Below, one piece after another: positions 4,291 through 34,830 of a stretch of 64,000 bases of DNA (positions within the stretch are counted from its first letter, which is position 1; every line of letters starts with the position of its first letter). Source of the DNA: a virus (Duplodnaviria; Heunggongvirae; Uroviricota; Caudoviricetes). Below the pieces are notes generated by a model. It saw only the letters and a program-made list of their open reading frames with translations, was not told the DNA's origin and did no database searches. The DNA lies in IMG/VR virus record IMGVR_UViG_3300032330_001609, positions 133,975 to 197,974 of that record, one strand, 5' to 3'. A program made the translations under genes and the position numbers.

Positions 4291-4614
4291 ATGGAAATTA
4301 CGCAAGAATTATTACAAGAAAAAATTAAAAATGGTGAAAAATTAATCGTGGACTTCCACGCAAAATGGTGCGGACCCTGCAAAGTAATGAAACCTGTTTT
4401 TGAAAAATTAGCTGAAGAATATAGAAATGAAAATTCCGAGGTTCAATTATATACGATGGATGTTGAATTAAATAAAGAATTTGCTGCGGAATTGGGTGTT
4501 AGAGCAATTCCTACTGTAAAATCATTTTCTGATGGTAAAGAAGTATATTCTCAACCGGGAATGCAAATGGAAGGACAAATTAAACAATTGGTGACTAATC
4601 TAATCAATGGATAA
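4291..4614 (+). CDS. trx: thioredoxin
   Basis: WCGPC active site in a 107 aa thioredoxin fold. Confidence 0.9.
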   Translation: MEITQELLQEKIKNGEKLIVDFHAKWCGPCKVMKPVFEKLAEEYRNENSEVQLYTMDVELNKEFAAELGVRAIPTVKSFSDGKEVYSQPGMQMEGQIKQLVTNLING

Positions 4615-4894
4615 GTTATTATTTATCTTCACGATGGAAGGATGTCCGTATTGTGTTCAGATGAAAGATAAGTTGAAAGAATCTAAAATTGATTTTATTG
4701 AGAGAGATATCTTTGAACATAAAGATGAATATGAAATGTTTGTTGAGGTTACTCAAAACGATTTTGTACCGGCATTTATGATTATTGAAAACCCGGATAA
4801 AGATAATGAGAAAAGTCATTTATTTGCTCCGGACAGAGATTATGAAGACATTGATGGTGGTGTCTCAATTATCAGAGAACATTTTGGAAAATAA
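4607..4894 (+). CDS. glutaredoxin / NrdH-like redoxin
   Basis: CPYC motif in a 95 aa protein. It overlaps the trx stop by 8 nt. Confidence 0.75.
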   Translation: MDKLLFIFTMEGCPYCVQMKDKLKESKIDFIERDIFEHKDEYEMFVEVTQNDFVPAFMIIENPDKDNEKSHLFAPDRDYEDIDGGVSIIREHFGK

Positions 4895-8664: not shown

Positions 8665-9849
8665 ATGAAAGTAAAATTAGAGTACATTTGGTTGGACGGA
8701 TATAAACCGGAACCAAATTTGAGAAGTAAAATTAAAGTTGTTGACACATTACCAAAAGAGATTAGTGATATCCCTGAGTGGGGTTTTGATGGGAGTTCAA
8801 CTATGCAAGCCGAAGGATTCTCTTCAGATTGTTACCTTAAACCTGTTAGAATGTATCAAAAAGGTAATACCAATTTGGTTTATGTTTTATGTGAGGTATT
8901 GGATAAGTACAATAAACCACACGATACAAACGATAGAAGTGAATTAGGTAAAGAAGACAATGATTTTTGGATTGGGTTTGAACAAGAATACTTTATTCGT
9001 TCATCACACAACAAAGATGTTTTAGGGTTTGAAAGAGGTGGTACAGTTGACCCCCAAGGTAAATACTATTGTGGTGTTGGCGGACAAATTGTTGGTAGAG
9101 AGTTAAGTGACGAGCATTTGGATTATTGTCTTGACTTGGGTATAAATGTTGAGGGGACCAATGCTGAGGTGGCACTTGGACAATGGGAATACCAAATATT
9201 CACTAAAGGTAAATTAAAATCTGCCGATGATTTATGGATGTCAAGATACATCTTACATAAATTAGCGGAGAAAAGAGGTTACGCGATTGAACTTCATCCA
9301 AAACCAATTCAAATTGGTGAGTGGAATGGGTCAGGACTACATACAAACTTCTCAAGTAAAAAAATGAGAGAAGAAGGTGGAGAAACTTACTTCAAATCTA
9401 TCTTCAATGCTTTTGAAACTAGACAAAAACTTCACATTGAAAATTATGGTTCAGATAATCATTTAAGATTAACCGGTAAATTTGAGACACAATCAATTGA
9501 TAAATTTAGTTGGGGTGTATCAGATAGAGGAGCATCTATTAGAGTCCCTAAATCAGTTGGTGAAACTTGGAAAGGTTATCTTGAGGATAGAAGACCATCA
9601 TCAAATGCTAACCCTTATAAAGTTATTGGTGTTATCTATGACGCATTGATTTTCGCTGACCAATTGGAAACAACTATTCACGCAATGTATGGTGATGTGG
9701 ATACATCAAAATTAAGAGAACAATTCTCAGGAATTATGTCTGATGAAGAGTTACTAGGTGAATACAGAAATGATGATGATTATGAATTGACTCCTGAAAT
9801 GATGGAATCAAAAGCAAATGTACCAACAGAAGATATAACATCAAAATAA
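8665..9849 (+). CDS. glnA: glutamine synthetase, type II (eukaryote-like)
   Basis: IWLDG...EWGFDGSST.QAEG, YYCGVG, GTNAEV..QWEYQI, EWNGSGLHTNFS, RLTG, ASIRVP and DRRPSSN all match GSII signature blocks. Confidence 0.85.
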   Translation: MKVKLEYIWLDGYKPEPNLRSKIKVVDTLPKEISDIPEWGFDGSSTMQAEGFSSDCYLKPVRMYQKGNTNLVYVLCEVLDKYNKPHDTNDRSELGKEDNDFWIGFEQEYFIRSSHNKDVLGFERGGTVDPQGKYYCGVGGQIVGRELSDEHLDYCLDLGINVEGTNAEVALGQWEYQIFTKGKLKSADDLWMSRYILHKLAEKRGYAIELHPKPIQIGEWNGSGLHTNFSSKKMREEGGETYFKSIFNAFETRQKLHIENYGSDNHLRLTGKFETQSIDKFSWGVSDRGASIRVPKSVGETWKGYLEDRRPSSNANPYKVIGVIYDALIFADQLETTIHAMYGDVDTSKLREQFSGIMSDEELLGEYRNDDDYELTPEMMESKANVPTEDITSK

Positions 9850-10534: not shown

Positions 10535-11392
10535 ATGATAGAAACAGGAAAGATTATAAATGGTGATTGTGTTGAGGTAATGAAATCACTTCCGGATGGA
10601 TGTATTGATTTACTAGTAACGTCACCACCCTATAACGTAAATGTATCATACGATGTATATGATGATGGACGTTCAATGGACGAGTATTGGGAGTTCACCC
10701 GACAATGGTTATCTGAATCATTAAGAATATTGAAAGACGATGGTAGAGTAGCAATCAATGTTCCAATTGAATTAAACGTTCAAGAAAGAGGTGGAAGAAT
10801 CTTATTCAATGCTGAATTTTGGATAATGATGAAACAAGTTGGATTCAAATTCTTTGGAATGGTTGACTTGACTGAGGATTCTCCACACCGAGTTAGACAA
10901 ACGGCTTGGGGTAGTTGGATGAGTGCTAGTTGTCCTTACATATATAACCCGAAGGAATGTATCATATTGGCTTACAAAAAAACAAATAAGAAACTAACCA
11001 AGGGTGAATCACAATGGAAAGGTGTTCCAACGGATGTTGAACAACCGGATGGAACAACAAAAAATAAAGTGGTTTATCAGGATGAAGATAAGAAAGAGTT
11101 TATGAACTTGGTATTTGGACGATGGGAATACTTTGCTGATACCAAATCATTAACTAAGGCGACATTCTCAATGGATATTCCAATGAAAGCGATTAAGATA
11201 TTATCATATAAGAATGATATTGTTTTTGACCCTTTTATGGGTAGTGGAACATCAGCAGTTGCTGCTGAGATATTAGGCAGGAGATGGTTGGGAGTCGAGT
11301 TATCTCCAAATTATACGGATATCGCAAGAAAACGAGTGAATGCGTTTATTGAAGAAAGGAAACAATTAGAGTTAGAATTAAAAGAGGAGTAA
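10535..11392 (+). CDS. DNA methyltransferase (beta-class N4-cytosine/N6-adenine)
   Basis: DLLVTSPPYN (motif IV) precedes FDPFMGSGTS (motif I), which is the beta-class order. Confidence 0.85.
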   Translation: MIETGKIINGDCVEVMKSLPDGCIDLLVTSPPYNVNVSYDVYDDGRSMDEYWEFTRQWLSESLRILKDDGRVAINVPIELNVQERGGRILFNAEFWIMMKQVGFKFFGMVDLTEDSPHRVRQTAWGSWMSASCPYIYNPKECIILAYKKTNKKLTKGESQWKGVPTDVEQPDGTTKNKVVYQDEDKKEFMNLVFGRWEYFADTKSLTKATFSMDIPMKAIKILSYKNDIVFDPFMGSGTSAVAAEILGRRWLGVELSPNYTDIARKRVNAFIEERKQLELELKEE

Positions 11393-11439: not shown

Positions 11440-11790
11440 ATGGCAAAAAGATTTATAATTTCAGAAGATGAAAAAAGAGATATCCGTTCAAGATATGGTT
11501 TATTAAATGAACAAACTCAATTGAGTGGTCAAGAAGTTTTTGAATTACAAACAGCACTTAATGATTACTTTAAGATGAAAAAAGTAATGGTTAATGGTAA
11601 AATATTCCAAATACCGGTAGATTCTCAATGGGGTCCAACAACGGTAAACGCTCTTAAAAAATTCCAAACTATGGAAAAAATTGATTCAGATGGAATACCG
11701 GGTGGAGATACTTACAATGCGTTACATAAATTAGGGTTAAACCAAGATATTATTGACAAAGCAATCAATTGGATAAGTAATTTATTTTAA
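11440..11790 (+). CDS. hypothetical protein (MAKRFIISEDEKR N-terminus)
   Basis: 116 aa ORF with GGATATTTATAATT upstream. Confidence 0.6.
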   Translation: MAKRFIISEDEKRDIRSRYGLLNEQTQLSGQEVFELQTALNDYFKMKKVMVNGKIFQIPVDSQWGPTTVNALKKFQTMEKIDSDGIPGGDTYNALHKLGLNQDIIDKAINWISNLF

Positions 11791-11791
11791 T

Positions 11792-12898
11792 ATGAAAAAA
11801 ACATTAACAGAGTCTGAATTAAAAGAAAGAATAATTCAAATTTATAAAGAAGAACAAGAAAAAATACTTCAAGAGAAATGGGACGTATTATCTAAAGAGG
11901 ATAAAATTTTTGTTGTTGAGTTCTTACGTTCGGCTTATCCTGAAAAATCAAAACTTCTTAAAGAGGCTAAATGGTATAATACATTGGGTGACCTTGTTGG
12001 TATTTTTGACCCAACAGGTATTGTTGATGTGGTTAATGGTATTAGTTATTGGAGACAAGGTGATAAGTTATTTGCTATTTTATCTTTAATATCGGCAGTT
12101 CCAATTATTGGTGACGCAATTGGTAAAACAGTAATAGGTGTAATGAAAACAGGTGGTGCAAGTACTAAAGCATTCAAAGCAGCTGCCGTTGCAGGTGATG
12201 CGGCTAAAATTGCGGAAACTGCTAAAGCAGCCGGAGGACCAATAGCTAAAATGGTTGAGACCGCACCATCTTGGGGAACTAAATTACTTAATATGTTAAA
12301 AGCGTTAATTGGTAGAGTTCCATTTTTAGGAAGAGGATTGGTTAAAGTTATTGAAGAGTATATTCAAATTTTCAAAGGTGCCGGTGCAAAAATGGGTACT
12401 CGTGCGGCTGAATTGGCAAAATTAGAAGGAAAAACATTATCGGCAGCAGAAAAATCTAAATTGATTAAACAAATTGAAAAAGACACTGCATTTAGAGGAT
12501 TTAGAGATAATAAAGGTTTGGCTAACGCATCATTTATGTCAAAAGTTCGTGGAGGTGTTCCAAGATTATTTGGTAACAGAGCAACACGTTCATTGATGGG
12601 TAGAACTAAATGGTATTTAAGATTATTAGACTTTTTAGGTGTTGCAAATTTTGTTGGTCCGGACGAGTTAATGCAAAAATATAGTGATTTAGAACAAAAA
12701 GTTAATGAATTTAATCAAACACCACAAGGTCAAAAATCTTGGGCTGATGATTTTGGTTCTGTTTTTAATCAACAAACACCTGCACCTGTTGCACCAACAA
12801 CACCTCCACCATCAGCACCAACAACAACAACGGGTGGTGACTTTATTGGGGATGCGTTAAAAGGTATGTTTGGTTCAGCACTTAAAGCGGCGATATAA
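11792..12898 (+). CDS. hypothetical protein, Gly/Ala-rich with Pro/Thr-rich C-terminus
   Basis: 368 aa ORF. Confidence 0.6.
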   Translation: MKKTLTESELKERIIQIYKEEQEKILQEKWDVLSKEDKIFVVEFLRSAYPEKSKLLKEAKWYNTLGDLVGIFDPTGIVDVVNGISYWRQGDKLFAILSLISAVPIIGDAIGKTVIGVMKTGGASTKAFKAAAVAGDAAKIAETAKAAGGPIAKMVETAPSWGTKLLNMLKALIGRVPFLGRGLVKVIEEYIQIFKGAGAKMGTRAAELAKLEGKTLSAAEKSKLIKQIEKDTAFRGFRDNKGLANASFMSKVRGGVPRLFGNRATRSLMGRTKWYLRLLDFLGVANFVGPDELMQKYSDLEQKVNEFNQTPQGQKSWADDFGSVFNQQTPAPVAPTTPPPSAPTTTTGGDFIGDALKGMFGSALKAAI

Positions 12899-12900
12899 TT

Positions 12901-14307
12901 ATGAAACAACTAATAAATGAAAGTGGTTTAAGAGATATTAAAGCCCTTGCAAAAAGATATCCTAAAGCTGAAATATATTTCCATCAAGATTTAGATGGTG
13001 TGACAACGGCAATTGCTATGAAAAAATACCTTGAGAACAATGGTATTAAAGTAGTTGACGCTCATATTATTCAATATGGAGATAAAGAGTTTGCGGTGAA
13101 GAAGAATGATGCTAAAGGTGATGTTATGCCGGTCTTAGTGGATTTTGCTCACGGTAAACCAATGTTTGTTATTCATACAGACCATCACGATAGACAAGCC
13201 GGTGCTGAAGATACTAAATCAACATCATTCAGACAGTCTCGTTCTAATGTTGAAACAATTTCTCAGGTAGTTTCACCTAAAGATTTATTTCCATCTTCGG
13301 ATATATTATTAATTTCAACGGTAGATTCAGCAAATTACGCATTTAATGAAATAAGTGTTGACCAAGTGATATCTTATTTATTCAAATTAGATAAAGACTC
13401 TTCATTACAAAAAAATAAAATGTTAATGGGATTAGTTGTTAACAAATTATTATTAGCCTTCAAAAACAAACCGGGATTCTTAGAACAATTGGTGATGGAA
13501 TGTAGTCCATCCTTATTGAATATACTTCATACAATTAAAAAAATTATGGTTCAAAAAGGTTTTGTAAAACCTGAAAGTCTTGAACAAAATAAAGATGAGT
13601 ATGTTAAATCAATGCAAGATAATCCTAATGTTAAAGTATTGGGTAACATCATAGTTCAATATGGTGGAGGTCCAATGTTTAAGCCAGGTTCTTATGACCG
13701 ATATACACCATTCAAAAATAATCCTGAAGCGGACTTCTTAGTTATTGCTTGGCCTTTGGGGTTAGTTCAAGCATCTTGTAATCCATTCAAAAAAGAAAGA
13801 GAACTAAAAGGTGTTAATTTAGGTGAGATAGCTCAAGAAGTTTTATCTAAGTGGGAAGACCAATTAAAACAACGTGAGTTACCACTTTCAACTATTAAAT
13901 GGGTATCGGAAACATCAAAAGATTTTAATACGGAATCAACAGGATTTACATTCAAAGATTTTGTTGCGTTATATGGTAAAGATTATAAATCAAAAGACCA
14001 CGGTAAGGAAGAATTATTACATATTGGTGAGATGATGGAGAAACCATTTTCAGAATTACCGGAAGAACATAGACAAATGTTGGATGATATTAATGTAAAT
14101 GTTTGGGATTTTATTCAGGCAAATAGTGGTGGGCACAAATGTATAACAAACATTTCAGGATTAAATTATCTTGGTAGAGGTAAAAGACCACCAAAAGGAA
14201 GTCATAGATATAATGAGGCGGATGATTCACCAACGGTTAAATTTACCAAAATGATTCAGAACGAGTTTGTGAAATTATTACAAGAAAAAATTAGTCAAGG
14301 TCACTAA
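12901..14307 (+). CDS. DHH-family phosphoesterase
   Basis: HQDLDGV (motif I), VDFAHGK (II), HTDHHD (III) and SGGHK (IV). Confidence 0.6.
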   Translation: MKQLINESGLRDIKALAKRYPKAEIYFHQDLDGVTTAIAMKKYLENNGIKVVDAHIIQYGDKEFAVKKNDAKGDVMPVLVDFAHGKPMFVIHTDHHDRQAGAEDTKSTSFRQSRSNVETISQVVSPKDLFPSSDILLISTVDSANYAFNEISVDQVISYLFKLDKDSSLQKNKMLMGLVVNKLLLAFKNKPGFLEQLVMECSPSLLNILHTIKKIMVQKGFVKPESLEQNKDEYVKSMQDNPNVKVLGNIIVQYGGGPMFKPGSYDRYTPFKNNPEADFLVIAWPLGLVQASCNPFKKERELKGVNLGEIAQEVLSKWEDQLKQRELPLSTIKWVSETSKDFNTESTGFTFKDFVALYGKDYKSKDHGKEELLHIGEMMEKPFSELPEEHRQMLDDINVNVWDFIQANSGGHKCITNISGLNYLGRGKRPPKGSHRYNEADDSPTVKFTKMIQNEFVKLLQEKISQGH

Positions 14308-14641
14308 TTATTTTGTTACCGGTTTTAATACCTAATTGTTTACAGGTACCACCTTGTAATTCTAGTATCATATCACCTTCGGAACAATAATTTTCACACT
14401 TTTTAGTTTTACACGGAGGACAATTGTGAAATATTTTTGAGATAGTATTATCTTTAATATAAATTATGTCTAATGGTATTATACAATTCTTCATCCAAAA
14501 ACAATGAGGACCATCAGACATTAGGAATAACATTCCATTAAACGTATTGTCAAATTTTTTATTCATCATTCCATTTTGAGTATGTTTTGATGAAAAAACA
14601 GTTTTGACTTTGAATTTATTTTTATTTATACTTATAATCAT
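14291..14641 (-). CDS. DUF192-like protein
   Basis: ...NGMLFLMSDGPHCFWMKNCIIPLDIIYI...ILELQGG...GIKTGNKI matches the DUF192 pattern. Confidence 0.45.
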   Translation of the reverse strand: MIISINKNKFKVKTVFSSKHTQNGMMNKKFDNTFNGMLFLMSDGPHCFWMKNCIIPLDIIYIKDNTISKIFHNCPPCKTKKCENYCSEGDMILELQGGTCKQLGIKTGNKIISDLD

Positions 14642-14651
14642 ATTTATAAAT
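14639..14651 (+). promoter_or_regulatory. GATATTTAT-class motif
   Basis: catatttataaat before 14669. Confidence 0.4.
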
Positions 14652-14668
14652 ATCTAATTTTATTTAAA

Positions 14669-15094
14669 ATGAAAGAGGTTAAACGATATTCCGGTGTAAT
14701 AGTTAAATGTGGTGATGAGGTATTGCTTTGTAAAAGAAATGCTAACGATTCATTACCGGGACAATGGAGTATACCTTGTGGTCATTTAGAAAACGGGGAA
14801 CATCCAATGGATGGTGTTAAACGAGAATTTGAAGAAGAAACGAATTATACATTAGATAATAAATTAAAATTAGTTGGTTTTGTTAAACGATATAATCGTG
14901 ATGGTACTGAAGTAAGAGGGTTAATGTATGTCTTTTTAATGGTGAGTGATGAAAAGATTAATCCGGATTTAGAAAACGCTAAAGATGGTGAAGAACATAC
15001 GGAATGTGGATATTTTAACCTTGAAACACTACCATTTGATAATAAAAAGGACCAATTATGTAAGTTAATTACGAAATTATTAAAAAAAGATTGA
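14669..15094 (+). CDS. Nudix hydrolase
   Basis: Nudix box GHLENGEHPMDGVKREFEEETN. Confidence 0.85.
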   Translation: MKEVKRYSGVIVKCGDEVLLCKRNANDSLPGQWSIPCGHLENGEHPMDGVKREFEEETNYTLDNKLKLVGFVKRYNRDGTEVRGLMYVFLMVSDEKINPDLENAKDGEEHTECGYFNLETLPFDNKKDQLCKLITKLLKKD

Positions 15095-15165
15095 TTTTTC
15101 ATTTTTTATAAATATTTATATATTCACAAGCCAACAACCCCCTTTCTTATTGGTTGGACACATTG

Positions 15166-15203
15166 AAACCTCAACAGAGTAAATTTTGTTGAGGTTTTTT
15201 TTG
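15166..15203 (+). terminator. rho-independent terminator
   Basis: cctcaaca...tgttgagg followed by T8. Confidence 0.65.
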
Positions 15204-15222
15204 TTTATATCAAAAATAGTAT

Positions 15223-15230
15223 TATCTTTG
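15223..15230 (+). promoter_or_regulatory. Bacteroidota-type -7 box
   Basis: tagtattatctttgtcggg, 22 nt before the ATG at 15253. Confidence 0.55.
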
Positions 15231-15252
15231 TCGGGAATTTAATTATTAAGAT

Positions 15253-15756
15253 ATGATAGTATTAGGAATTATTTTAGGTATTGTATTACTGATAGTTGCA
15301 ATGATTGGTGTTGGAGGTTCTATCCAAGACAAAAACAGAAGAGCTAGATGTAAGAATTGGAAAGTTGGTGATAAATTAGCATTATGTAAAGGTAGACATA
15401 ATGATATTTTAGACCATAGAAAGAAAGAGTTTGCCATCCTCAAAGGGTGGGATTTGGAACATCTTTATATTGATTGTGGTGATGATATGGTTTATCAGGT
15501 TAATTGGTCTGTTATGAATTTTAACAAATCTGCGACTTGGAGACAAAACTACGAAGAAGCTAAAAAAGTTATGGGTTGTGACCCGGCATTTAGTGGTGGT
15601 GTTGGTGAGAGTAATCCTATTGGTAGAATTTATGAAGGTAAACCAATTGATACTATGAATGAGATTGAGTGTGAGGTGTATTTGAAGAAAGCTTTGGATG
15701 ATGAAGATTACGATACTGCTGAGTTGATTAAAAAAAGAATGGAAAAATTTAGATAA
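15253..15756 (+). CDS. membrane-anchored protein
   Basis: N-terminal TM segment; host-type promoter at 15223-15230. Confidence 0.6.
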   Translation: MIVLGIILGIVLLIVAMIGVGGSIQDKNRRARCKNWKVGDKLALCKGRHNDILDHRKKEFAILKGWDLEHLYIDCGDDMVYQVNWSVMNFNKSATWRQNYEEAKKVMGCDPAFSGGVGESNPIGRIYEGKPIDTMNEIECEVYLKKALDDEDYDTAELIKKRMEKFR

Positions 15757-15757
15757 G

Positions 15758-15940
15758 ATGAAAAATATTTTAAGAGGAATGGCTTTGTCCGTTATAATTT
15801 ATTTTGTGATTATGGGAATCACATTATGGTGTGTTCAATTATGTGGTGGGAGAATAAGTGACGTTCCAACTGATATCTATGTTGGTGTTGGTGTTGTTTG
15901 TGGTTTTATGGCGATAATTATTAACGAAAAATTAGATTAA
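15758..15940 (+). CDS. small membrane protein
   Basis: 60 aa with two hydrophobic segments, coupled start. Confidence 0.45.
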   Translation: MKNILRGMALSVIIYFVIMGITLWCVQLCGGRISDVPTDIYVGVGVVCGFMAIIINEKLD

Positions 15941-15941
15941 G

Positions 15942-16202
15942 ATGGGGTTTAATACTATGAAAGGTTTTGTAATAATGATTTTTTTAGTTGTTATTAGTTT
16001 ATTTGTTTATAAAGGTTATATGATAACAAGTATGACCAAAGATGGTAAACATTTGTATGAGATATCAATCCCGGGTAACAAACGTCAAGAGACGAGTTTC
16101 TACACTAATAGTTATGTGGAGAAAGATGGGTGTGTATCATTCAAGGATGAGTTTGGTAGGTCACATAGAATATGTGGTATGTATAATATAACAGAATATT
16201 AA
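15942..16202 (+). CDS. small membrane/secreted protein
   Basis: 86 aa with a hydrophobic N-terminus. Confidence 0.45.
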   Translation: MGFNTMKGFVIMIFLVVISLFVYKGYMITSMTKDGKHLYEISIPGNKRQETSFYTNSYVEKDGCVSFKDEFGRSHRICGMYNITEY

Positions 16203-16203
16203 G

Positions 16204-16461
16204 ATGGAAAAAACGTATATTGAAAGAATTAAAGATACTGTTGATGGTATTTGTGATGACTATAATTTGGGACAACCAATTGTGGTTCCTGCGGCGGCAA
16301 GAATGATTGCCGAACATAAAGGTGTTGATGTGGCAATTGAATTGTTTGAGGGTGCATATAACGAATGTGTGAATGACCCGGATAGTACCAACCCTTTTGC
16401 ATTTGCCGCGTACAAGTCAACGTTGGAGAAACTTTTAATACCGATGAGAGATAATAAATAA
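16204..16461 (+). CDS. hypothetical protein
   Basis: 85 aa, coupled start. Confidence 0.5.
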   Translation: MEKTYIERIKDTVDGICDDYNLGQPIVVPAAARMIAEHKGVDVAIELFEGAYNECVNDPDSTNPFAFAAYKSTLEKLLIPMRDNK

Positions 16462-16465
16462 AATT

Positions 16466-16501
16466 TAATCCCAAATAATTTTTTTGTTTGGGATTTTTTT
16501 A
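16466..16501 (+). terminator. rho-independent terminator
   Basis: atcccaaa...tttgggat followed by T7. Confidence 0.65.
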
Positions 16502-16509
16502 TATCTTTG
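16502..16509 (+). promoter_or_regulatory. Bacteroidota-type -7 box
   Basis: tatatctttgtcgg before 16529. Confidence 0.55.
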
Positions 16510-16528
16510 TCGGATAAAATATTAGAAG

Positions 16529-17269
16529 ATGGAAAAATTATTTACCTTTTATGAGGTTGGGGGGAAAGTTAGAGATGAGATTTTAGGTCTTGAATCTAAA
16601 GACGTGGATTACGTTGCGGTTCCTAACGATAAATTGTTACAGGACTTTGATACTGCTGAGTCTATGTTCTCTATGTTGGAACAATACCTGAAGGATGAGA
16701 AGTTTGAAATCTTCTTGGTTACACCGGATTGTTTTACCATCAGAGCAAAGTTCCCAAAAAACCATAAGTATAGTGGTGTTGCGGACTTTGTAATGGCTCG
16801 TAAGGAAGTTGGTTATGTTCCGGGAACAAGAACACCAATCGTTAAACCGGGGACGTTATATGATGATTTGGAGAGACGTGATGCTACATTGAACGCGTTG
16901 GCAAAAGATGACAATGGAACTATAATTGATTACTTCAACGGATTAACTCACTTGAAGTATGGTATTTTGAGAACACCATTAGACCCAATTAAAACTTTTG
17001 ATGATGACCCTCTTAGAATTATCAGATTCATTAGGTTCTCAATTACAAAAGGTTTTACAATCCCGGATGATATTCAATCAGTAATTGCTTCATACGACTA
17101 CGAATCTAAAATGGGTGTAGTTTCAACTGAAAGAATTAGAGAAGAATTGTTAAAGTGTTTTAAGTATAATACATTAAGAGCTTTGGGTACAATTAATTAT
17201 TACCCTAATTTAAGAGATTACATTTTCAAAAACAATCTGTTGTGGTTAAAACCAACGATGGAACAATAA
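16529..17269 (+). CDS. CCA-adding tRNA nucleotidyltransferase / poly(A) polymerase head domain (class II)
   Basis: VGGKVRDEILGLESKDVDYV gives the GG.VRD and DxD motifs, and ERRDATLNALA gives the RRD motif. Confidence 0.7.
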   Translation: MEKLFTFYEVGGKVRDEILGLESKDVDYVAVPNDKLLQDFDTAESMFSMLEQYLKDEKFEIFLVTPDCFTIRAKFPKNHKYSGVADFVMARKEVGYVPGTRTPIVKPGTLYDDLERRDATLNALAKDDNGTIIDYFNGLTHLKYGILRTPLDPIKTFDDDPLRIIRFIRFSITKGFTIPDDIQSVIASYDYESKMGVVSTERIREELLKCFKYNTLRALGTINYYPNLRDYIFKNNLLWLKPTMEQ

Positions 17270-17922
17270 ATATAGATATGAATAAAGATACAAAAAAAAT
17301 GTTGGACATAATGACGTTAGCGTCAGAGATGGCTTTTGGTGGTGGTTATGAATTTTTATTTGGTGGATTACCAAGAGAACCAAAAAAAGTTAATCCTTAT
17401 CAAGATTTGAATGATGGGTTTGAACTTAGACCGATTGAATTATCTGAAAAAGAATCTGAAAATTCAAGGATTGTTGAATTAAAATATTCACATCTATATA
17501 AAGATGGTGTAAAGGTTTCTGATGATATTTTCCGTAAAGGTGGTATTTGTCACGGATTCAAAGAGGGGTATTGTAGTTTAATTCATTATATAAGAACAAA
17601 GGAACCAAAAAAGAATGATAGTGGATTTAGTTTTGGTATTCACGTAATTGTTAATACTGATGGTAAAATTTGTTTAGAAGGTAAAAGTCTTGATTCTCCT
17701 CATCATAGTGGTGGTAATGTAGGTTCAGTAGGTGATTACTATTACAATTTACTTACCGGTGAAAAGATTTGTTATAGACCAAGAACTATTATCGTGGGTG
17801 AGGAATATCTTTATCTTGAACATAGATATAACTTTGATTATTATGAAGTAAAAATCCCGGTTGGTGTTTATAAATTGAATAAGATTACATTGGAGTTAAC
17901 AAAAATTGATGAGATAAAATAA
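17242..17922 (+). CDS. hypothetical protein
   Basis: 226 aa. Confidence 0.55.
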   Translation: MVKTNDGTINIDMNKDTKKMLDIMTLASEMAFGGGYEFLFGGLPREPKKVNPYQDLNDGFELRPIELSEKESENSRIVELKYSHLYKDGVKVSDDIFRKGGICHGFKEGYCSLIHYIRTKEPKKNDSGFSFGIHVIVNTDGKICLEGKSLDSPHHSGGNVGSVGDYYYNLLTGEKICYRPRTIIVGEEYLYLEHRYNFDYYEVKIPVGVYKLNKITLELTKIDEIK

Positions 17923-17951
17923 AAAAAGTTTGTATATTAAAAAAATAGTAT

Positions 17952-17959
17952 TATCTTTG
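17952..17959 (+). promoter_or_regulatory. Bacteroidota-type -7 box
   Basis: TTTG-19 nt-TAtcTTTG before 17975. Confidence 0.6.
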
Positions 17960-17974
17960 TCAAAAATATAACAT

Positions 17975-18250
17975 ATGACAACAACAAATTATTCCGTTAA
18001 AATTGAGAACGAAATGTTCGGGAAACTATTACACGAAAGATTCGTGGATGCAATCCAATTCAAGTTATTCTTGAAGATGGTACAGGGTTGTCTTGAATTG
18101 AAAAATGATTTGACTTTCTTCAACGGGAGTGACTTCTTAATTCACGTTCCATTTAAGTATTTGGTGGATTCGGTTATTGTTACATCAACATTTGATATGA
18201 CATTAGCTGACCATATGAGAAGTAAAGTAGAGGCGTTAGTTACTAAATAA
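17975..18250 (+). CDS. hypothetical protein
   Basis: 91 aa; host-type promoter at 17952-17959. Confidence 0.5.
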   Translation: MTTTNYSVKIENEMFGKLLHERFVDAIQFKLFLKMVQGCLELKNDLTFFNGSDFLIHVPFKYLVDSVIVTSTFDMTLADHMRSKVEALVTK

Positions 18251-18870: not shown

Positions 18871-19197
18871 ATGAAACACGTTATACTTACAGAAAAACAA
18901 CTTGAAACATTAGTGTCACAAGTTAAAACTTTGAAGGAAGACCATAAAGAAGGTTCTTATATGGCTAAGCAACAGTTATTTATCATTGCGAAGATGGCTC
19001 AAGCTATGTGGGAAAAGATGGAAGATGATGGTGATGACCAATTAGAAGATTGGATGGAAAGTAAAATTGCTCAAGCGGAACAAAGTATTACGTCTGTGGT
19101 TAAAACTTTTATGTATGATGAATTCTCTAAAAAAGAAGAGGATGAAATTGGTGGAATGAATAAACTTGGTTATAGTGACCTAATAATTGGAAAATAA
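18871..19197 (+). CDS. hypothetical protein (MKHVILTEKQ N-terminus)
   Basis: The ORF 18838.. was trimmed to the Met at 18871; GATATTTATAAAT lies just upstream. Confidence 0.5.
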   Translation: MKHVILTEKQLETLVSQVKTLKEDHKEGSYMAKQQLFIIAKMAQAMWEKMEDDGDDQLEDWMESKIAQAEQSITSVVKTFMYDEFSKKEEDEIGGMNKLGYSDLIIGK

Positions 19198-19663
19198 AAT
19201 GGAAAAAAAATTAATGCAAATTAAGAAAAAAGATATGTTCTTGAGAGAACAAGAAGAACCGGAAACTAAACAAGAAGAAAAAACAGAAACAGGTAAAATC
19301 AATGGGTTAGTTTCTAAACTACTTCATTCTAGAATACAAGTTCACATCTTCCATTGGCAAACAAAATCACAATCATCGTTTGCTGAACATATGGCTTTAG
19401 GTGGGTTTTATGAAGGTATTGGTGATTTAACAGATGGTTTAGTTGAAAGTTACCAAGGTAAACACGACATCATCACCGGGTATGATTCAATGAAACTTGA
19501 GGATTATCAAAGTGTTGAACAATTAATTAAATATTTCAAAGCATTAGACCTTGCAATTGAAAAAGATAGAAAAAGTGTAAAAGAATCTTATATTCAAAAT
19601 CAAATTGATACTATTCAAGAATTACTTTATTCCACATTATACAAATTACGTTTCTTAAAATAA
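19187..19663 (+). CDS. hypothetical protein
   Basis: 158 aa. Confidence 0.55.
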   Translation: MENKMEKKLMQIKKKDMFLREQEEPETKQEEKTETGKINGLVSKLLHSRIQVHIFHWQTKSQSSFAEHMALGGFYEGIGDLTDGLVESYQGKHDIITGYDSMKLEDYQSVEQLIKYFKALDLAIEKDRKSVKESYIQNQIDTIQELLYSTLYKLRFLK

Positions 19664-20641: not shown

Positions 20642-20672
20642 ATAAAAAGTTTGGTAAGTTAAAAAATAGTGT

Positions 20673-20680
20673 TATCTTTG
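20673..20680 (+). promoter_or_regulatory. Bacteroidota-type -7 box
   Basis: aaaaatagtgttatctttgtactc before 20702. Confidence 0.55.
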
Positions 20681-20701
20681 TACTCACAAAACAGATATAT
20701 T

Positions 20702-21451
20702 ATGACAACTACCACTACCACTACCACTACCGTTTCAAGAGTTAGAAATTACGAAGGTTCTAACCAATTTTTATTAAACCTTAAATCATCTTTACAAAGA
20801 TGGGGGAGCTTAACACCTAAACAAATGGAATTCGCTGAGAAAGCACTTAAAAGTGTTCAAACCGTTAATGTTGAGACTATGTCTGAAGACTTACAAAAGA
20901 TTGCTAAGTACGACGGACCAAACAGTTTCGTTAACGAAATCAAAAGTAAATTGATAAAGTACGGAACTTTGTCTGACAAACAGGTTAACGCAACTCTTAA
21001 TCAAATCCAAAAAGATATTGATAAGGCAAACACTCACAAGATGAGAATCCCAACTCCGGGAGAGACTGTAACTGTAGGTCGTAAGATTGGACAACAATTG
21101 AAAGAAACTTACGGATTAGAATTCAACCCAATGATTATTGATATCACTAAGTTGTTAGCAGTTTCACCAAAGGCGATTAAGTTCTCAGGGAAGATGACAA
21201 CAGGAAGAAGTAAAGTTTGTAGATGTTGTGCTAAAACATTGACTGACGAGTTCTCAATGTTAACCGGAGTTGGAAAGACTTGTGCTACTCATATGAGAAT
21301 CCCTTACATCACTGATGTAACTCAAGCTGACAGATTCCGTGAGGATTACTTGAAAAGAGTAGAAGAAATTGGTGAAATGGAATTTTGGGTACCTAAGTCT
21401 CAGGTTAAAAAATGGGATGGTAAGACAGAAATCATCTTAAAAATGATATAA
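20702..21451 (+). CDS. hypothetical protein with poly-Thr N-terminus
   Basis: The ORF-track start at 20669 lies inside the promoter box, so the first ATG at 20702 (MTTTTTTTTTV) was used. Confidence 0.6.
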   Translation: MTTTTTTTTTVSRVRNYEGSNQFLLNLKSSLQRWGSLTPKQMEFAEKALKSVQTVNVETMSEDLQKIAKYDGPNSFVNEIKSKLIKYGTLSDKQVNATLNQIQKDIDKANTHKMRIPTPGETVTVGRKIGQQLKETYGLEFNPMIIDITKLLAVSPKAIKFSGKMTTGRSKVCRCCAKTLTDEFSMLTGVGKTCATHMRIPYITDVTQADRFREDYLKRVEEIGEMEFWVPKSQVKKWDGKTEIILKMI

Positions 21452-21786
21452 TGTCACAATATTGTAGAAGACTGAACTCCTTGTTGTCTGAGATATACAA
21501 GGAGTTCCCCCAAATGAGGAGGCACCCGGAATACTGGTTTTATTATCTACATTGGGGTTATTCAGAGCCGAGGGAATATTTCTTTGTATTAACCAATAAT
21601 ATTCCGGATTCAAAAGATGATGGTTTACTAGTGTTCGTTAATACCACTGCACAGATATTTGGTTTTGTTGAGGGAGTATTGATGACACCGGATGATTTCA
21701 AAAAACATATTGGTGAACCTATGGAAGAATCGGCAAAAGATTTACGTGGTAGTGAGTTCAAAGTATTTGGATATGAGGTGTGGTAA
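21451..21786 (+). CDS. hypothetical protein
   Basis: 111 aa, ATGA overlap. Confidence 0.5.
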   Translation: MSQYCRRLNSLLSEIYKEFPQMRRHPEYWFYYLHWGYSEPREYFFVLTNNIPDSKDDGLLVFVNTTAQIFGFVEGVLMTPDDFKKHIGEPMEESAKDLRGSEFKVFGYEVW

Positions 21787-21839
21787 TTTGACTTTTGAAA
21801 AAAATAGATTATATTAGATGAACAAATAAAAACAAATTT

Positions 21840-22277
21840 ATGAACGTTAAAAAATCGTTAAAAGAAAAAAACCGATTGGTTAAAGAAATCCAAGAACTTT
21901 ACGCTAGATTGTCTCAGTACAATTCAGTTGAGGTTGGAAATGTGAGACCCTATTCTCCTAAAGATATGCTTGAGCAAATCAATGAGAAAAGTAATGAGTT
22001 AGTGGAACTTAAAACCAAAATCCACAAGGCAAACACTCCGGTGTACGATAAAATATTCAGATTGTCTGAATTAAAATCTACAATTGCAAGATTAAAATCT
22101 TTGGATTGTACAGAAGGTGTGAGTACAGATTACTACTCACGAAATAGAGAGAATCCACCGGTAAAAACTGCTGCGGTATCAGTGGTTGAGAGAGATGAGA
22201 TGGTTAAAAATATGGAAGGAATGATTGAAGACCTTCAGGATATTTTGGATAACCATAATCAGAATACCGAGATATAA
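21840..22277 (+). CDS. coiled-coil protein
   Basis: 145 aa. Confidence 0.5.
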   Translation: MNVKKSLKEKNRLVKEIQELYARLSQYNSVEVGNVRPYSPKDMLEQINEKSNELVELKTKIHKANTPVYDKIFRLSELKSTIARLKSLDCTEGVSTDYYSRNRENPPVKTAAVSVVERDEMVKNMEGMIEDLQDILDNHNQNTEI

Positions 22278-22418
22278 TAGTTCAGAGTTCGGGAGGGATT
22301 TAATAAGACAAGATGGTAACTACCATTTCCTTACAAATTATTCAGAGAGCATTGATAAATGATTGTGATAAAGACGGACATTAAAACCTCAAGATTCAAA
22401 TTTTCAAACCTAAACGGT

Positions 22419-22508
22419 CAAAACTTAAAACTCTTTTAGAATTTTATTATTGAACTTCCAACCTGACTATAAAAAAACCCTCACTTCGGTGGGGGTTTTG
22501 TATTTTTA
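22419..22508. repeat. direct repeat copy 1 (about 90 bp) containing a bidirectional terminator
   Basis: About 90% identical to 23436-23524; contains ccctcac-ttcg-gtggggg. Confidence 0.7.
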
Positions 22509-22520
22509 ATTTGTTATGAA

Positions 22521-23363
22521 TTAATTTAATGTTATGTTATATGCACTACCATTAGAGTGTGTGTAAGTAGCTAAATTATCACATTGATTATTTCCATAAT
22601 CTAAAATACCATCTAAAAAACTTCCAAGTAGTTTTAATTTTCCTTGTGAAATATTATTACAAGTATATTTTTTAATTAATGGTTCAACAACAGTAATATT
22701 TAATGGAAAACCACCTTCTTTAATTATTGTATGATTACCTGAAGTTATTTCATAAATGTTGTCTGTAAAAATTAATGTATTTGCTCCCTCTATTTGTTTA
22801 ATTGTTCTTGTTCCGTAATGATTAAATACTATACCTGACGAAGTAGTAATTTTTCCGTTTGTTATAGTTCTAGTCCATTGTGGAATATTAGGGTTTACAG
22901 TGGTATTTTCATAAACAATAGTTCCTTCTATTTTTTCACCATTTACATAATAATTATTTCCTCTTTGGATGGTCATTATACTACCACTATTTAATATGTA
23001 ATTAGAAATTGTTATAGTTATAATTCCGGAACGAGTTATTCCGTTGTTATTACAACTTGTACCAAAATCAACCGTAAAAGATTTTGGAAAAACACCGGGA
23101 GTTGGATTATTAACAGTTACTGTTGCACAAGATAATACAGAATTTGATTGCGAAATTGTATTTAATCTATTACTATAACTTGAATAGTTGTTTGAAACAT
23201 CAATACCCGAGTTAAAATCTAATTCATTAGTTAAATCAATTTTTGATGAAGTAGTGATTAATTGTTTATCAACATTTAGATTTAGATTTTCATCTTTGTT
23301 ACAAGATATAAAATTTAAGGACAAGAACAAAAGTCCAAAAATGTAAAATTTTAAGTTTTTCAT
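22521..23363 (-). CDS. lipoprotein
   Basis: Signal peptide with lipobox-like LNFISC at the N-terminus; Asn/Thr-rich. Confidence 0.7.
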   Translation of the reverse strand: MKNLKFYIFGLLFLSLNFISCNKDENLNLNVDKQLITTSSKIDLTNELDFNSGIDVSNNYSSYSNRLNTISQSNSVLSCATVTVNNPTPGVFPKSFTVDFGTSCNNNGITRSGIITITISNYILNSGSIMTIQRGNNYYVNGEKIEGTIVYENTTVNPNIPQWTRTITNGKITTSSGIVFNHYGTRTIKQIEGANTLIFTDNIYEITSGNHTIIKEGGFPLNITVVEPLIKKYTCNNISQGKLKLLGSFLDGILDYGNNQCDNLATYTHSNGSAYNITLN

Positions 23364-23435
23364 AATTTTTTTTTTTAATTTTATTTGTTATTTTTATTCA
23401 TATATTTGTAAATATAATAAAAAACATTAATTTGT

Positions 23436-23524
23436 CAAAACTTAAAACTCTTTTTGATTTACTTATTGAACTTCCAACCTGACTATAAAAAAACCCTCAC
23501 TTCGGTGTGGGTTTTGTATTTTTA
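23436..23524. repeat. direct repeat copy 2 containing a bidirectional terminator
   Basis: Matches 22419-22508. Confidence 0.7.
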
Positions 23525-24217
23525 GAATCTTATCTCGTAATCTATGTTAACATCTTGTTCTTCTTCGGTGTTATAATTAAAGTCAAAATATATAGTTTTA
23601 TCTCTTGGGTTAAATTCCCAACTTCCTTGAGCACCTTCATTATTTTCCCATCCCGCATAATTACTACTAATCATAGAATACATTAGTTCTTCTATTGGTC
23701 TTGGAATATCATATCGTTCTCCGTTAATATACATATCATCTTCAATGTAACCGTCATCACCTCCACCACTAAAATTAACACTAGCGTTATCGTCACCAAG
23801 TCGTTCAAATAATTCAACAACAGCGTTATATTCTTCTTCAGTATATTCTGATTTAATATCGTCTAAACTATACTCACTACCGTGTGGTTCAGAACCATAA
23901 ACAGTTTCGTAAGCGTATATGTTTAATATTCTTTCTTTACAATCAATCTCAACTTCAATTCTTTGTGAACCATCACACTCTGTAAATCTATCAGTAATTG
24001 ATTCGTCATCAACTAATTTTTCAACAAGGTCATCAATTTTATCATAACTTTCAATAGACCTACTTACTTGATTTGAATACCAATTATCGTCTTTCCAATC
24101 TCTACTACAAGCTGATAAGTAAATTGTTGTATATACTCTATCAGCACCATTTGAACGGCAATAATAGGCAAATACTTGTAATGTTTTTAATTCTTCCGGA
24201 GTTAATTGTGGTACCAT
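23522..24217 (-). CDS. hypothetical acidic protein
   Basis: 231 aa. Confidence 0.6.
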   Translation of the reverse strand: MVPQLTPEELKTLQVFAYYCRSNGADRVYTTIYLSACSRDWKDDNWYSNQVSRSIESYDKIDDLVEKLVDDESITDRFTECDGSQRIEVEIDCKERILNIYAYETVYGSEPHGSEYSLDDIKSEYTEEEYNAVVELFERLGDDNASVNFSGGGDDGYIEDDMYINGERYDIPRPIEELMYSMISSNYAGWENNEGAQGSWEFNPRDKTIYFDFNYNTEEEQDVNIDYEIRF

Positions 24218-24240
24218 AAATCTTTTTTATTATAAATATG

Positions 24241-24591
24241 TTAATCTACGTTAATTTCCATAGTCCTCAACATCCACATTGGTTTTTCTTTGGATTCCAT
24301 CGCTAGTATCCACTCACGAGCAGTTGGGATGTAGTTATAACAATCTTCTTTAACGTGTTGTTCACCCACATAACGTGTATAAACGGTTTTTCCGTCACTA
24401 TTTGTGAACATTGGGCCAAACTTTTGTTCCATCTCAAATATTCCCTCAGAGTGGTGTCTAAACATTCTATGAGATGAATGTCCATACCATCCCTTTGTCT
24501 CATCAAGCCAGTTATGTAAGTGGATATAATCTTCCCATATACCACCAAACTTCTTGGCGGATGATTTTGCGTGAATAATTGGATGTGCCAT
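24241..24591 (-). CDS. hypothetical protein
   Basis: 116 aa. Confidence 0.55.
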   Translation of the reverse strand: MAHPIIHAKSSAKKFGGIWEDYIHLHNWLDETKGWYGHSSHRMFRHHSEGIFEMEQKFGPMFTNSDGKTVYTRYVGEQHVKEDCYNYIPTAREWILAMESKEKPMWMLRTMEINVD

Positions 24592-29698: not shown

Positions 29699-29741
29699 AA
29701 AAATATTTTACTAATAAATAGTTTATTAAAATAATTTGTCT

Positions 29742-29749
29742 TATCTTTG
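29742..29749 (+). promoter_or_regulatory. Bacteroidota-type -7 box
   Basis: ttgtcttatctttgc before 29778. Confidence 0.5.
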
Positions 29750-29777
29750 CTTTCAGATTATCAAAAGAATATGTGTT

Positions 29778-30518
29778 ATGAATTATTATCCTTCAAATCG
29801 GATGAGTGCTGATTCTCCTAATGATAGGAAAACAAGGGCGTTAAATAAATTGATATATGGTTTGTTCAGAAAAGATATACTATCTGAAAATTCCACATTA
29901 AGAGCATTGTATGTTGTTAAAAGTTACACCGGTTGTTATACTATTGTGTTTGAGATGGATGGTGAATATCGTAGTGATGATATTTTGAATTGGATTATAA
30001 TCTCAACTGTTGATAAGATATTAGAATGGTGGGATATCACCGACAGTTATAATTTAGATGTTGAATATGTAACTCGTGGTAGAAGACCAATCAATAAAAA
30101 TTACTTTGAGTTGATGTTCCATTCCTATATTAAGAATAGTAATAAAGGTTATAGTCGTGACGGTGTGGATAATTTCCATCCAAGATTTACAAAAATGTGT
30201 CGTTGGATGCACTATCATAAACCACAAGAATATCAGTCGGCAATAAATAGAACGTATGACCCGTATAGATACAGAGAAAACCACCAAGCTCAGCAGTTGG
30301 CTCAACAAAGAGCTCAATTTGGTGAATTAGACCATCCGGGATATGGTCAGTTACAACAACGAGGAATACAACAAGGTTATTATAATTATGATATTGATAA
30401 TCTACGAGAACAAAGTAGACAACAACGAATGATGTTGGAATTGGAAGGAAGACGAAGTGAACCGATAGTTGAAAGGGTTTCTTCAATAAACAGATTAAGA
30501 AAATTATTAAAAATTTAG
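29778..30518 (+). CDS. hypothetical Q-rich protein
   Basis: The ORF-track TTG start lies inside the promoter box, so the first in-frame ATG at 29778 was used. Confidence 0.55.
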   Translation: MNYYPSNRMSADSPNDRKTRALNKLIYGLFRKDILSENSTLRALYVVKSYTGCYTIVFEMDGEYRSDDILNWIIISTVDKILEWWDITDSYNLDVEYVTRGRRPINKNYFELMFHSYIKNSNKGYSRDGVDNFHPRFTKMCRWMHYHKPQEYQSAINRTYDPYRYRENHQAQQLAQQRAQFGELDHPGYGQLQQRGIQQGYYNYDIDNLREQSRQQRMMLELEGRRSEPIVERVSSINRLRKLLKI

Positions 30519-31563: not shown

Positions 31564-31571
31564 TATCTTTG
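31564..31571 (+). promoter_or_regulatory. Bacteroidota-type -7 box
   Basis: aaagtattatctttgtatcc before 31611. Confidence 0.55.
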
Positions 31572-31610
31572 TATCCAATTAAAATATTAATAATTAAAAA
31601 AGTAAAAAAA

Positions 31611-34175: not shown

Positions 34176-34191
34176 TGAGGGTTTTTTTATA
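34163..34191. terminator. bidirectional terminator
   Basis: aaaaccctc-tgatg-agggtttttt. Confidence 0.65.
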
Positions 34192-34771: not shown

Positions 34772-34815
34772 AAATAATGTTTTACAATAAATATCCGTAT
34801 CAAAAATTTACTTCC

Positions 34816-34829
34816 GGTATATTTATAGG
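34816..34829 (+). promoter_or_regulatory. GATATTTAT-class motif
   Basis: ggtatatttatagg directly before the ATG at 34831. Confidence 0.4.
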
Positions 34830-34830
34830 T

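Follow-up and report, generated by a model that had tools for sequence, protein, structure and literature searches.

With Pnk and Rnl1, phage T4 heals and rebuilds tRNA that has been damaged by the host suicide nuclease PrrC, an anticodon nuclease. In E. coli, the HD domain of the CCA-adding enzyme serves tRNA repair in that it can clear 2',3'-cyclic phosphate or 3'-phosphate ends ahead of CCA synthesis (PMC6961547), and small alarmone hydrolases, including PaSpo of phage SSU5, remove pyrophosphate from the CCA end of tRNA (10.1101/2021.04.30.441581; PMC11245113). Genes for CCA-adding, PTH2, 2H, DHH, HD-alarmone, Nudix, and cREC enzymes and for RNA ligases have already been catalogued in jumbo phages by Iyer, Anantharaman, Krishnan, Burroughs, and Aravind (2021, PMC7824862), with roles in RNA repair or the destruction of signaling nucleotides predicted by comparative genomics. 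Here, we consider a stretch of 64,000 nucleotides from a virus of the Caudoviricetes (IMG/VR record IMGVR_UViG_3300032330_001609, positions 133,975 to 197,974), referred to as the window and numbered from its first nucleotide, that encodes a DHH phosphoesterase, a Nudix hydrolase, a class-II CCA-adding-type nucleotidyltransferase, an HD hydrolase, a PTH2-like protein, and a 2H phosphoesterase. The six open reading frames (ORFs) start exactly where the first-pass annotation of this DNA had placed them and belong to the superfamilies named there, and the window mainly re-identifies gene classes from the jumbo phage catalogue. The gene sets described in that catalogue differ from the set in the window, which is dispersed and lacks a ligase.

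Our preferred reading, to which we assign a probability of about 0.5, is that these enzymes belong not to one system but to three groups, namely, a DHH-DUF192-Nudix block, the CCA-type nucleotidyltransferase with the HD and 2H enzymes, and the PTH2-like protein, and that the second group represents scattered members of an RNA/tRNA-repair set. In related phages, the CCA/HD/2H set is found with a PHA02142-type RNA ligase, with cREC and HAD_SAK phosphoesterases, and with tRNA arrays. We sampled 80 loci for each of the DHH, CCA, and 2H homologs, those for DHH and CCA from IMG/VR (62 to 83% identity for the CCA set); the clusters of CCA and HD loci referred to below result from de-replication at ≥90% identity. 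An HD homolog (56 to 68% identity) is present in 22 of the 80 CCA loci, often starting 5 to 160 nt past the CCA stop codon, and in 16 of the 27 CCA clusters that do not resemble the window, HD, RNA ligase, cREC, or HAD_SAK is encoded no farther than 10 kb away. Viewed from the HD side, 33 of 48 clusters carry a CCA, RNA ligase, cREC, or HAD_SAK gene within the same distance (15, 13, 15, and 12 clusters, respectively), and in six of the 48, no more than 300 nt separate the CCA gene from the start of an HD gene downstream. Diverged loci frequently have CCA and HD as their sole genes in common, the adjacency persisting while the flanks change. At one locus (L064), CCA is followed by HD, a PHA02142-type RNA ligase, cREC, and then tRNA genes, and of the 45 phage tRNA genes that lie beside CCA genes in relatives, 41 have no encoded CCA. 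Phage phiCbK has its HD homolog between RtcB-like and peptidyl-tRNA hydrolase genes. For 2H, an RNA ligase or HAD_SAK gene is found near the homolog in 26 of 80 loci (not de-replicated), and the 2H relatives of Maribacter phages, which are annotated as 2'-5' RNA ligase family, also lie near a HAD_SAK gene. The literature that we searched holds no report of a recurrent CCA-HD gene pair. The theme of tRNA 3'-end repair put forward in the first-pass annotation thus receives support for the CCA and 2H genes from the neighborhoods of their relatives, and it gains the HD enzyme, previously listed only as a possible degrader of signals.

The nucleotidyltransferase (16529 to 17269, plus strand; 246 amino acids [aa]) consists of head and neck only and is of class-II CCA-adding type, a label within which CCA-, CC-, A-adding, and poly(A) activities are not reliably distinguishable by sequence. 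Its family assignment is strong, as is that of the Nudix protein. It matches Pfam PolyA_pol, the head domain, with 59 bits (cut-off, 23) and phrog_24229, "tRNA nucleotidyltransferase," at 4e-60. Matches to profiles and chains of ~400 residues end near position 190 to 260 (190 to 215 for CCA-enzyme profiles), and all NCBIfam matches lie far below the equivalog cut-offs; indeed, none of the proteins reaches a curated NCBIfam cut-off. Residues G11, G12, R15, D16, D25, D27, D86, R116-R117-D118, D160, R163, and E206 are invariant among 21 homologs, and head motifs A to E (GGxVRD...DxD, third carboxylate, RRD, DxxR, and ERxxxE) are all present. The short form is itself conserved, the 120 closest homologs all measuring 198 to 260 aa.

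The CCA gene behaves as a movable cassette that makes an insertion/deletion difference with close relatives. A 1.7-kb segment (16212 to 17915) comprising this gene and the next ORF is absent from the syntenic loci L005 to L007, in which the flanks retain 80 to 88% nucleotide identity; the gene occupies the same slot in the more distant L012 (a 322-kb contig) and a different context in L013. The next ORF (203 aa, 17311 to 17922, plus strand) is co-inherited with CCA in some members of the lineage. We considered it as a candidate for the missing body/tail domain but rejected it, given that it matches no family and occurs in only 8 of the 80 CCA loci. A separate ORF of ~200 aa without a Pfam match accompanies the CCA-HD pair in a number of lineages, is 61 to 79% identical between loci (L034:8822-9409, L038:6578-7186, L056:10935-11546, L078:7283-7891, and L058:8631-9404), and has no homolog in the window.

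The HD hydrolase (30733 to 31299, plus strand) is of the RelA/SpoT-hydrolase type, which includes small alarmone hydrolases and MESH1, as judged from sequence matches in the PDB. Entries 6yvc, 3nr1, and 6z3o are matched at E of ~7e-6, the best solved relatives being small alarmone hydrolases, MESH1, and hydrolase domains of Rel, and the alignments to 6yvc and 3nr1 span the metal-ligand region. H27, H74-D75, D79, and D135 are invariant in nine homologs and E78 is found in eight of them; the metal ligands and the ED motif are thus present. Curated models are not reached (Pfam HD_4, 16.3 versus 27.2 bits; NCBIfam spoT_relA, 24.8 versus 499), and among PHROGs the protein matches only a generic "phosphohydrolase" family (phrog_990, 2e-22). 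Like PaSpo of Salmonella phage SSU5, MESH1, and ATfaRel, it is a single-domain RelA/SpoT-type HD protein that keeps the His/His-Asp/Asp ligands, but its similarity to these enzymes is low (E of ~1e-5), and SSU5 is not among its tblastn matches. HD-alarmone enzymes are filed under nucleotide-signal defense in the jumbo phage catalogue (PMC7824862), whereas the neighborhoods described here tie HD to the CCA-type enzyme and RNA ligase.

Upstream of the HD gene lies an ORF of 260 aa (29736 to 30518, plus strand) that matches no Pfam or NCBIfam family; a distant homolog of it (L034:9406-9993, aligning with window positions 29955 to 30254 at an E of 1e-5 in tblastn) stands directly upstream of CCA. 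Also beside the HD gene is a gene for an SPFH/Band 7 protein (31569 to 32450, plus strand; Pfam Band_7, 87 bits), homologs of which (~33% identity) are found 1 to 3 kb upstream of CCA-HD pairs in L038, L056, L078, and others, amounting to 12 of the 48 HD clusters.

For the 2H phosphoesterase (44374 to 44940, plus strand), the profile is Acb1-like and the neighborhood of the relatives is RNA-repair-like. Its two motifs, H63-C-T65 and H139-M-T141, are conserved in 34 homologs. In searches with the structural model (pLDDT, 87), all matches at an E of <0.1 are 2H-fold proteins, of which the Acb1-type phosphodiesterase of phage BCSR5 is the best, followed by Usb1, a poxvirus cGAMP phosphodiesterase, and LigT, with comparable E values (1e-5 to 1e-3). 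In its 2H fold and its pair of His-x-Thr motifs, the protein thus resembles Acb1 (Hobbs et al. 2022, PMC9117128), but it is only 16 to 19% identical to solved Acb1 proteins and has an N-terminal extension of ~55 residues, and, unlike Acb1, its relatives stand beside RNA ligase and HAD_SAK genes. Most 2H homologs likewise carry the Acb1 profile hit, and a tblastn search with the 2H protein of the window retrieved no T4-type Acb1 proteins. The NCBIfam 2_5_ligase cut-off is not reached (19.7 versus 65.7). On the basis of profile and model, the enzyme may degrade cyclic-oligonucleotide signals, an alternative already raised in the first-pass annotation; the gene context of its relatives points to RNA repair instead of Acb1-type cleavage. 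Between the PTH2-like and 2H genes, an ORF of 93 aa (44080 to 44361, plus strand) shows a weak match to Endonuclease_7 (HNH-type) and may encode a small homing-type nuclease.

From the observed domain families, active-site conservation, and gene neighborhoods, we infer both the substrates and the order of steps of a possible repair route. The 2H enzyme would open 2',3'-cyclic phosphate ends, and the HD enzyme would strip a 3'-phosphate or 3'-pyrophosphate, much as phage and cellular small alarmone hydrolases act on tRNA that has been pyrophosphorylated by toxic alarmone synthetases. Restoring the missing C, C, and A would then fall to the short nucleotidyltransferase. It would presumably also mature phage tRNAs without an encoded CCA, because such tRNAs make up the large majority of those beside CCA genes in relatives. 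The healing steps and the rebuilding step are proposed by analogy with small alarmone hydrolases and the E. coli CCA enzyme. Like E. coli Cca, the phage would combine a class-II nucleotidyltransferase (the CCA-type protein matches the N-terminal half of the NCBIfam model at an E of 1.7e-23) with an HD phosphohydrolase. In contrast to Cca, these are encoded by two genes, 13.5 kb apart in the window, the body/tail is lacking, and the phage HD protein resembles RelA/SpoT-type hydrolases rather than the HD domain of Cca. The logic is that of T4 Pnk/Rnl1, but the window has no kinase-phosphatase or ligase, and the proposed target is the 3' acceptor end instead of the anticodon loop.

Several observations weigh against a repair set. 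The three proposed genes are 13.5 and 27 kb apart, with unrelated ORFs in between, repair-type neighbors are absent from all 15 window-like CCA loci, and no ORF of ≥250 aa in the window gave a Pfam match to RNA ligase, Pnk, cREC, or HAD_SAK (the 287-aa ORF at 55382 to 56245 was scanned against PHROGs only). A homolog search of the window likewise identified no PHA02142-type or Rnl1 RNA ligase, cREC, or HAD_SAK, and the window contains no tRNA genes; since none of these genes is there, it holds no operon-like toolkit. RNA-repair operons, in which a ligase and end-healing enzymes stand together, are seen in relatives such as L064 and not in the window, and, as a weak negative, no window-like contigs are among the best 80 of 172 RNA-ligase matches. 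The nucleotidyltransferase, ending at residue 246, is without the tRNA-binding body and tail domains of characterized class-II enzymes, and the toxicity of a Klebsiella phage CCA-like enzyme to its host (PMC7291057) points, tentatively, to a role directed at the host. The HD enzyme could simply hydrolyze (p)ppGpp or (p)ppApp. The 2H protein exceeds the Pfam cut-off for Acb1 (PF23474; 33.4 versus 27 bits), which favors an anti-CBASS role, and stays under those of the LigT-type families 2_5_RNA_ligase2 (23.8 versus 27) and LigT_PEase (13.6 versus 23.3). Finally, the neighborhood counts depend on tblastn thresholds, and the locus sets are partly redundant, having been de-replicated only in part.

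These points lend themselves to a rather unlikely, yet by no means negligible, explanation in which the three enzymes have ordinary and unconnected roles and lie together in relatives because early or accessory regions, and not a pathway, are shared. The nucleotidyltransferase would then only mature phage tRNAs, as the prevalence of tRNA genes without CCA beside it would suggest, the HD enzyme would damp the stringent response or counter (p)ppApp toxins, consistent with its matches to the RelA/SpoT hydrolase region and to small alarmone hydrolase structures, and the 2H protein would be an Acb1-type nuclease directed against CBASS or type III CRISPR signals, in line with its Acb1 score and its best fold match. 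The dispersal of the three genes in the window and the filing of HD-alarmone, 2H, and DHH enzymes under counter-nucleotide defense (PMC7824862) fit as well. However, shared regions do not readily account for a CCA-HD adjacency that is kept while all flanking genes change, and the gene order at L064 is hard to explain without a shared function at RNA ends. A role confined to the maturation of phage tRNAs sits uneasily with the presence of short CCA homologs in a 117-kb phage record without tRNA genes and with the report of CCA-type genes in T7-like phages (PMC7693777). Likewise, for a nuclease of Acb1 type, it would be unexpected that tblastn with the 2H protein finds no T4-type Acb1 and that its cultured-phage relatives are annotated as 2'-5' RNA ligase family and lie near HAD_SAK. 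The recurring gene pair raises a further possibility, which we put forward only tentatively, that CCA and HD make up a two-gene module for healing and rebuilding tRNA 3' ends as a counter-defense, in effect a viral version of the E. coli Cca fusion split into two genes, with the pair separated but retained in the window. In such a module, CapRel-type toxic alarmone synthetases or CCA-trimming nucleases would leave a 3'-pyrophosphate or 3'-phosphate for HD to clear, after which the nucleotidyltransferase would restore the CCA.

Joint action of CCA and HD on tRNA 3' ends would mean that a repair route for the acceptor end exists in abundant aquatic jumbo phages. Besides the anticodon-loop repair of T4, phages would then have a countermeasure to tRNA-targeting defenses, among them CapRel-type toxic alarmone synthetases and nucleases that trim the CCA, and a role could be assigned to the widespread 245-aa phage "tRNA nucleotidyltransferase" family that is devoid of the usual tRNA-binding domains.

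The PTH2-like protein (43523 to 43771, plus strand; 82 aa) is a miniature form that scores 29.1 bits with Pfam PTH2 (cut-off, 23). The significant part of this alignment is limited to residues 7 to 26, and Pth2 entries in the PDB are matched at an E of 1e-3, with a second, non-significant stretch that aligns the C-terminal D-x-G-x-T motif. The protein is ~35 residues shorter than solved Pth2 (full domain, ~115 aa), and equally short homologs exist in ICP1, in Aeromonas and Shewanella phages, and in the huge phage LR745206. No PTH2-like homolog was found in the 160 CCA or 2H loci, even at an E of 1, and neither PTH2 nor 2H homologs ever occur within 10 kb of the CCA gene in the 80 CCA loci. We consider the gene an independent accessory gene, whose product may recycle blocked aminoacyl- or peptidyl-tRNA.

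The first-pass annotation had grouped the DHH, Nudix, and CCA genes as a 5-kb cluster of enzymes for nucleotide and RNA-end processing. This trio does not hold together: a minus-strand DUF192 gene and five small ORFs intervene, the CCA gene is missing from syntenic relatives, a CCA gene is found within 6 kb of DHH in only 2 of 80 DHH loci, and, conversely, DHH and Nudix are near CCA only in the 15 window-syntenic loci among the 80 CCA loci. Nor does a part for DHH and Nudix in RNA-end processing find backing, as none of the 80 DHH loci has an RNA ligase, cREC, HAD_SAK, HD, or 2H gene within 6 kb. What is conserved instead is a distinct block in which DHH, DUF192, and Nudix keep company with a DNA methylase gene and with genes of peptidoglycan-binding or tape-measure-like type, and for which no link to RNA repair is detectable. 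The block is anchored upstream by an N6/N4 DNA methyltransferase gene (10535 to 11392, plus strand; Pfam N6_N4_Mtase, 119 bits). Directly upstream of the block is the gene for a small peptidoglycan-binding protein (11440 to 11790, plus strand; PG_binding_1, 41.5 bits), and this is followed by that for a Gly/Ala-rich, tape-measure-like protein of 368 aa (11792 to 12898, plus strand; weak match to Pfam TMP_2). A methylase homolog stands upstream of DHH in 77 of the 79 loci with enough upstream sequence. The position of the PG_binding_1 gene is retained in relatives, except that a Phage_lysozyme gene takes the slot in L019, and the 368-aa protein is a variable member (a homolog in 44 of 79 DHH loci, missing from L005 to L007). 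Downstream, DUF192 adjoins DHH in 56 of the 58 loci with enough downstream sequence and Nudix follows DHH-DUF192 in 36 of these 58; the order DHH-DUF192-Nudix is retained in relatives at 88%, 80%, and 65% identity.

The DHH protein (12901 to 14307, plus strand; 468 aa) is assigned by motifs and fold to a divergent, uncharacterized subfamily of DHH/DHHA1 phosphoesterases. With 23.3 bits, it stays under the Pfam DHH cut-off (28.1), and it has no sequence match in the PDB. Nevertheless, residues H28, D30, D32, D81, D94-H95-H96, D142, and G410-G411-H412 are invariant in 32 relatives of 28 to 53% identity, and motifs I to IV, the DHHA1 GGH motif, and the two-domain fold are all present; the enzyme looks catalytically intact. 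Its AlphaFold model is confident (pLDDT, 90.9) and matches DhhP, TM1595, GdpP, and RecJ in Foldseek with a probability of 1.0; further fold matches include PggH, a PAP phosphatase, RecJ/Cdc45, and DHH proteins of other large viruses. The two-domain fold, the four DHH motifs, and the GGH motif are shared with NrnA, DhhP, GdpP, and RecJ, to which the protein is, however, only 9 to 15% identical, with TM-scores of 0.3 to 0.45, and from which it differs by a helical insertion of ~90 residues and by an association with peptidoglycan hydrolases that is not known for these enzymes. The stop end of the DUF192 gene (14291 to 14641, minus strand; Pfam DUF192, 74 bits) overlaps that of DHH by 17 nt on the opposite strand. 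The Nudix gene (14669 to 15094, plus strand) encodes a minimal hydrolase of 141 aa (Pfam NUDIX, 67.8 bits; cut-off, 21.1) with an intact Nudix box, Gx5Ex7REUxEExGU (residues 38 to 60, GHLENGEHPMDGVKREFEEETNY), in which the sole change is that of the penultimate Gly to Asn. BdRppH and MutT-type enzymes are its best matches, in the region of the Nudix box only.

The block appears tied to cell-wall or entry-type modules, since the DHH domain is fused to peptidoglycan hydrolases in some relatives and the slot upstream of DHH is taken by PG_binding_1, Phage_lysozyme, or a tape-measure-like protein. A link to nucleotide metabolism is conceivable as well, in view of L015, where a CTP synthase gene separates DUF192 from Nudix. 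The fusions are found in P0121, P0122, P0179, and P0196 (55 to 65% identity), with C-terminal Peptidase_M23 or PG_binding_1 plus GH19 in relatives of 64 to 65% identity and DUF3293 with an S-AdoMet-lyase domain in others; we found no report of DHH fused to these modules in reviews PMC7824862 and PMC5512222. Two more specific roles can be envisaged. Nucleotide scavenging and pool sanitation, which we consider unlikely, would assign to the DHH enzyme the last steps of host nucleic acid degradation, in the manner of an NrnA-like nanoRNase or a pAp phosphatase, and to Nudix the cleaning or redirecting of the pool. The closest folds to the DHH protein (the nanoRNase/dinucleotide phosphodiesterases DhhP, TM1595, and PggH and a PAP phosphatase), the CTP synthase gene in L015, the MutT-type and pyrimidine-NTPase models that best match the Nudix protein, and a gene for the non-specific nuclease Endonuclease_NS at 34187 to 34771 would all fit. 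Repeated fusion and adjacency to peptidoglycan modules would, however, be unexpected for a cytoplasmic salvage enzyme, the TM-scores to known enzymes are low and the helical insertion is large, and the Nudix matches all fall far under curated cut-offs. Alternatively, as the peptidoglycan modules would suggest, DHH could be a virion-delivered or lysis-associated effector, part of an ejected set of "polyvalent" type, acting at or just after entry on, for example, host signaling nucleotides or a phosphodiester-linked envelope polymer. Packaged and injected polyvalent proteins are documented (PMC5512222). Still, the paper describing them does not mention DHH domains, a long C-terminal extension is seen in only 3 of 80 close DHH relatives, and no unambiguous structural gene lies directly beside DHH in the window, which leaves this role, in our estimate, quite improbable.

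The window (G+C, ~32%; genes nearly all on the plus strand) covers a region of accessory genes in a jumbo phage whose genome measures at least 332 kb. Exact protein matches place it at ~256 to 320 kb of ENA metagenome scaffold ERZ28594640 scaffold_1 (332,109 bp), and the portion of this contig that we analyzed comprises the window and its 10-kb flanks. Megablast with positions 12000 to 18000 retrieved no close DNA relative among GenBank phages. The lineage is abundant in metagenomes, the DHH protein having thousands of homologs, many of them 87 to 97% identical, on contigs of up to 464 kb. A host among the aquatic Flavobacteriia (Bacteroidota) is likely, because the nearest cultured-phage homologs of three of the enzymes come from Flavobacteriia phages, that is, of Cellulophaga for the CCA-type protein, Maribacter for 2H, and Tenacibaculum for HD. 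The uncultured phage LR745206.1 (634,780 bp), which encodes homologs of DHH (45% identity), 2H (37%), and mini-PTH2 (67%), may be a distant relative. We rejected MT835470 as a genomic relative; its record contains the best CCA homolog (63% identity) and no tRNA genes, and only the CCA gene and DUF192 are common to it and the window.

Among the remaining genes of the window, none of which had figured in the enzyme set, the minus-strand Endonuclease_NS (DNA/RNA, non-specific) gene opens a segment (34187 to 36260) that continues with a GT2 glycosyltransferase and a calcineurin-like phosphoesterase. The latter is a seventh phosphoesterase, not listed in the first-pass annotation, and its alignment with the LpxH model (UDP-2,3-diacylglucosamine diphosphatase) runs over the full length, at a score below the cut-off. 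No Rfam family matches anywhere in the window, and two intervals, 52507 to 53661 and 54863 to 55381, have neither an ORF of ≥90 aa nor a tRNA gene. A DUF5856 protein (19187 to 19663, plus strand) is replaced in relatives by a longer protein annotated as Ferritin/Rubrerythrin, and a DUF6011 protein together with a minus-strand DUF6878-DUF6915 pair (20669 to 24591) is conserved across the lineage. Adjacent thioredoxin and glutaredoxin genes (4291 to 4894, plus strand) are conserved in relatives too, as is the position of a glutamine synthetase gene (Gln-synt_N plus Gln-synt_C; 8665 to 9849, plus strand), an unusual auxiliary metabolic gene.

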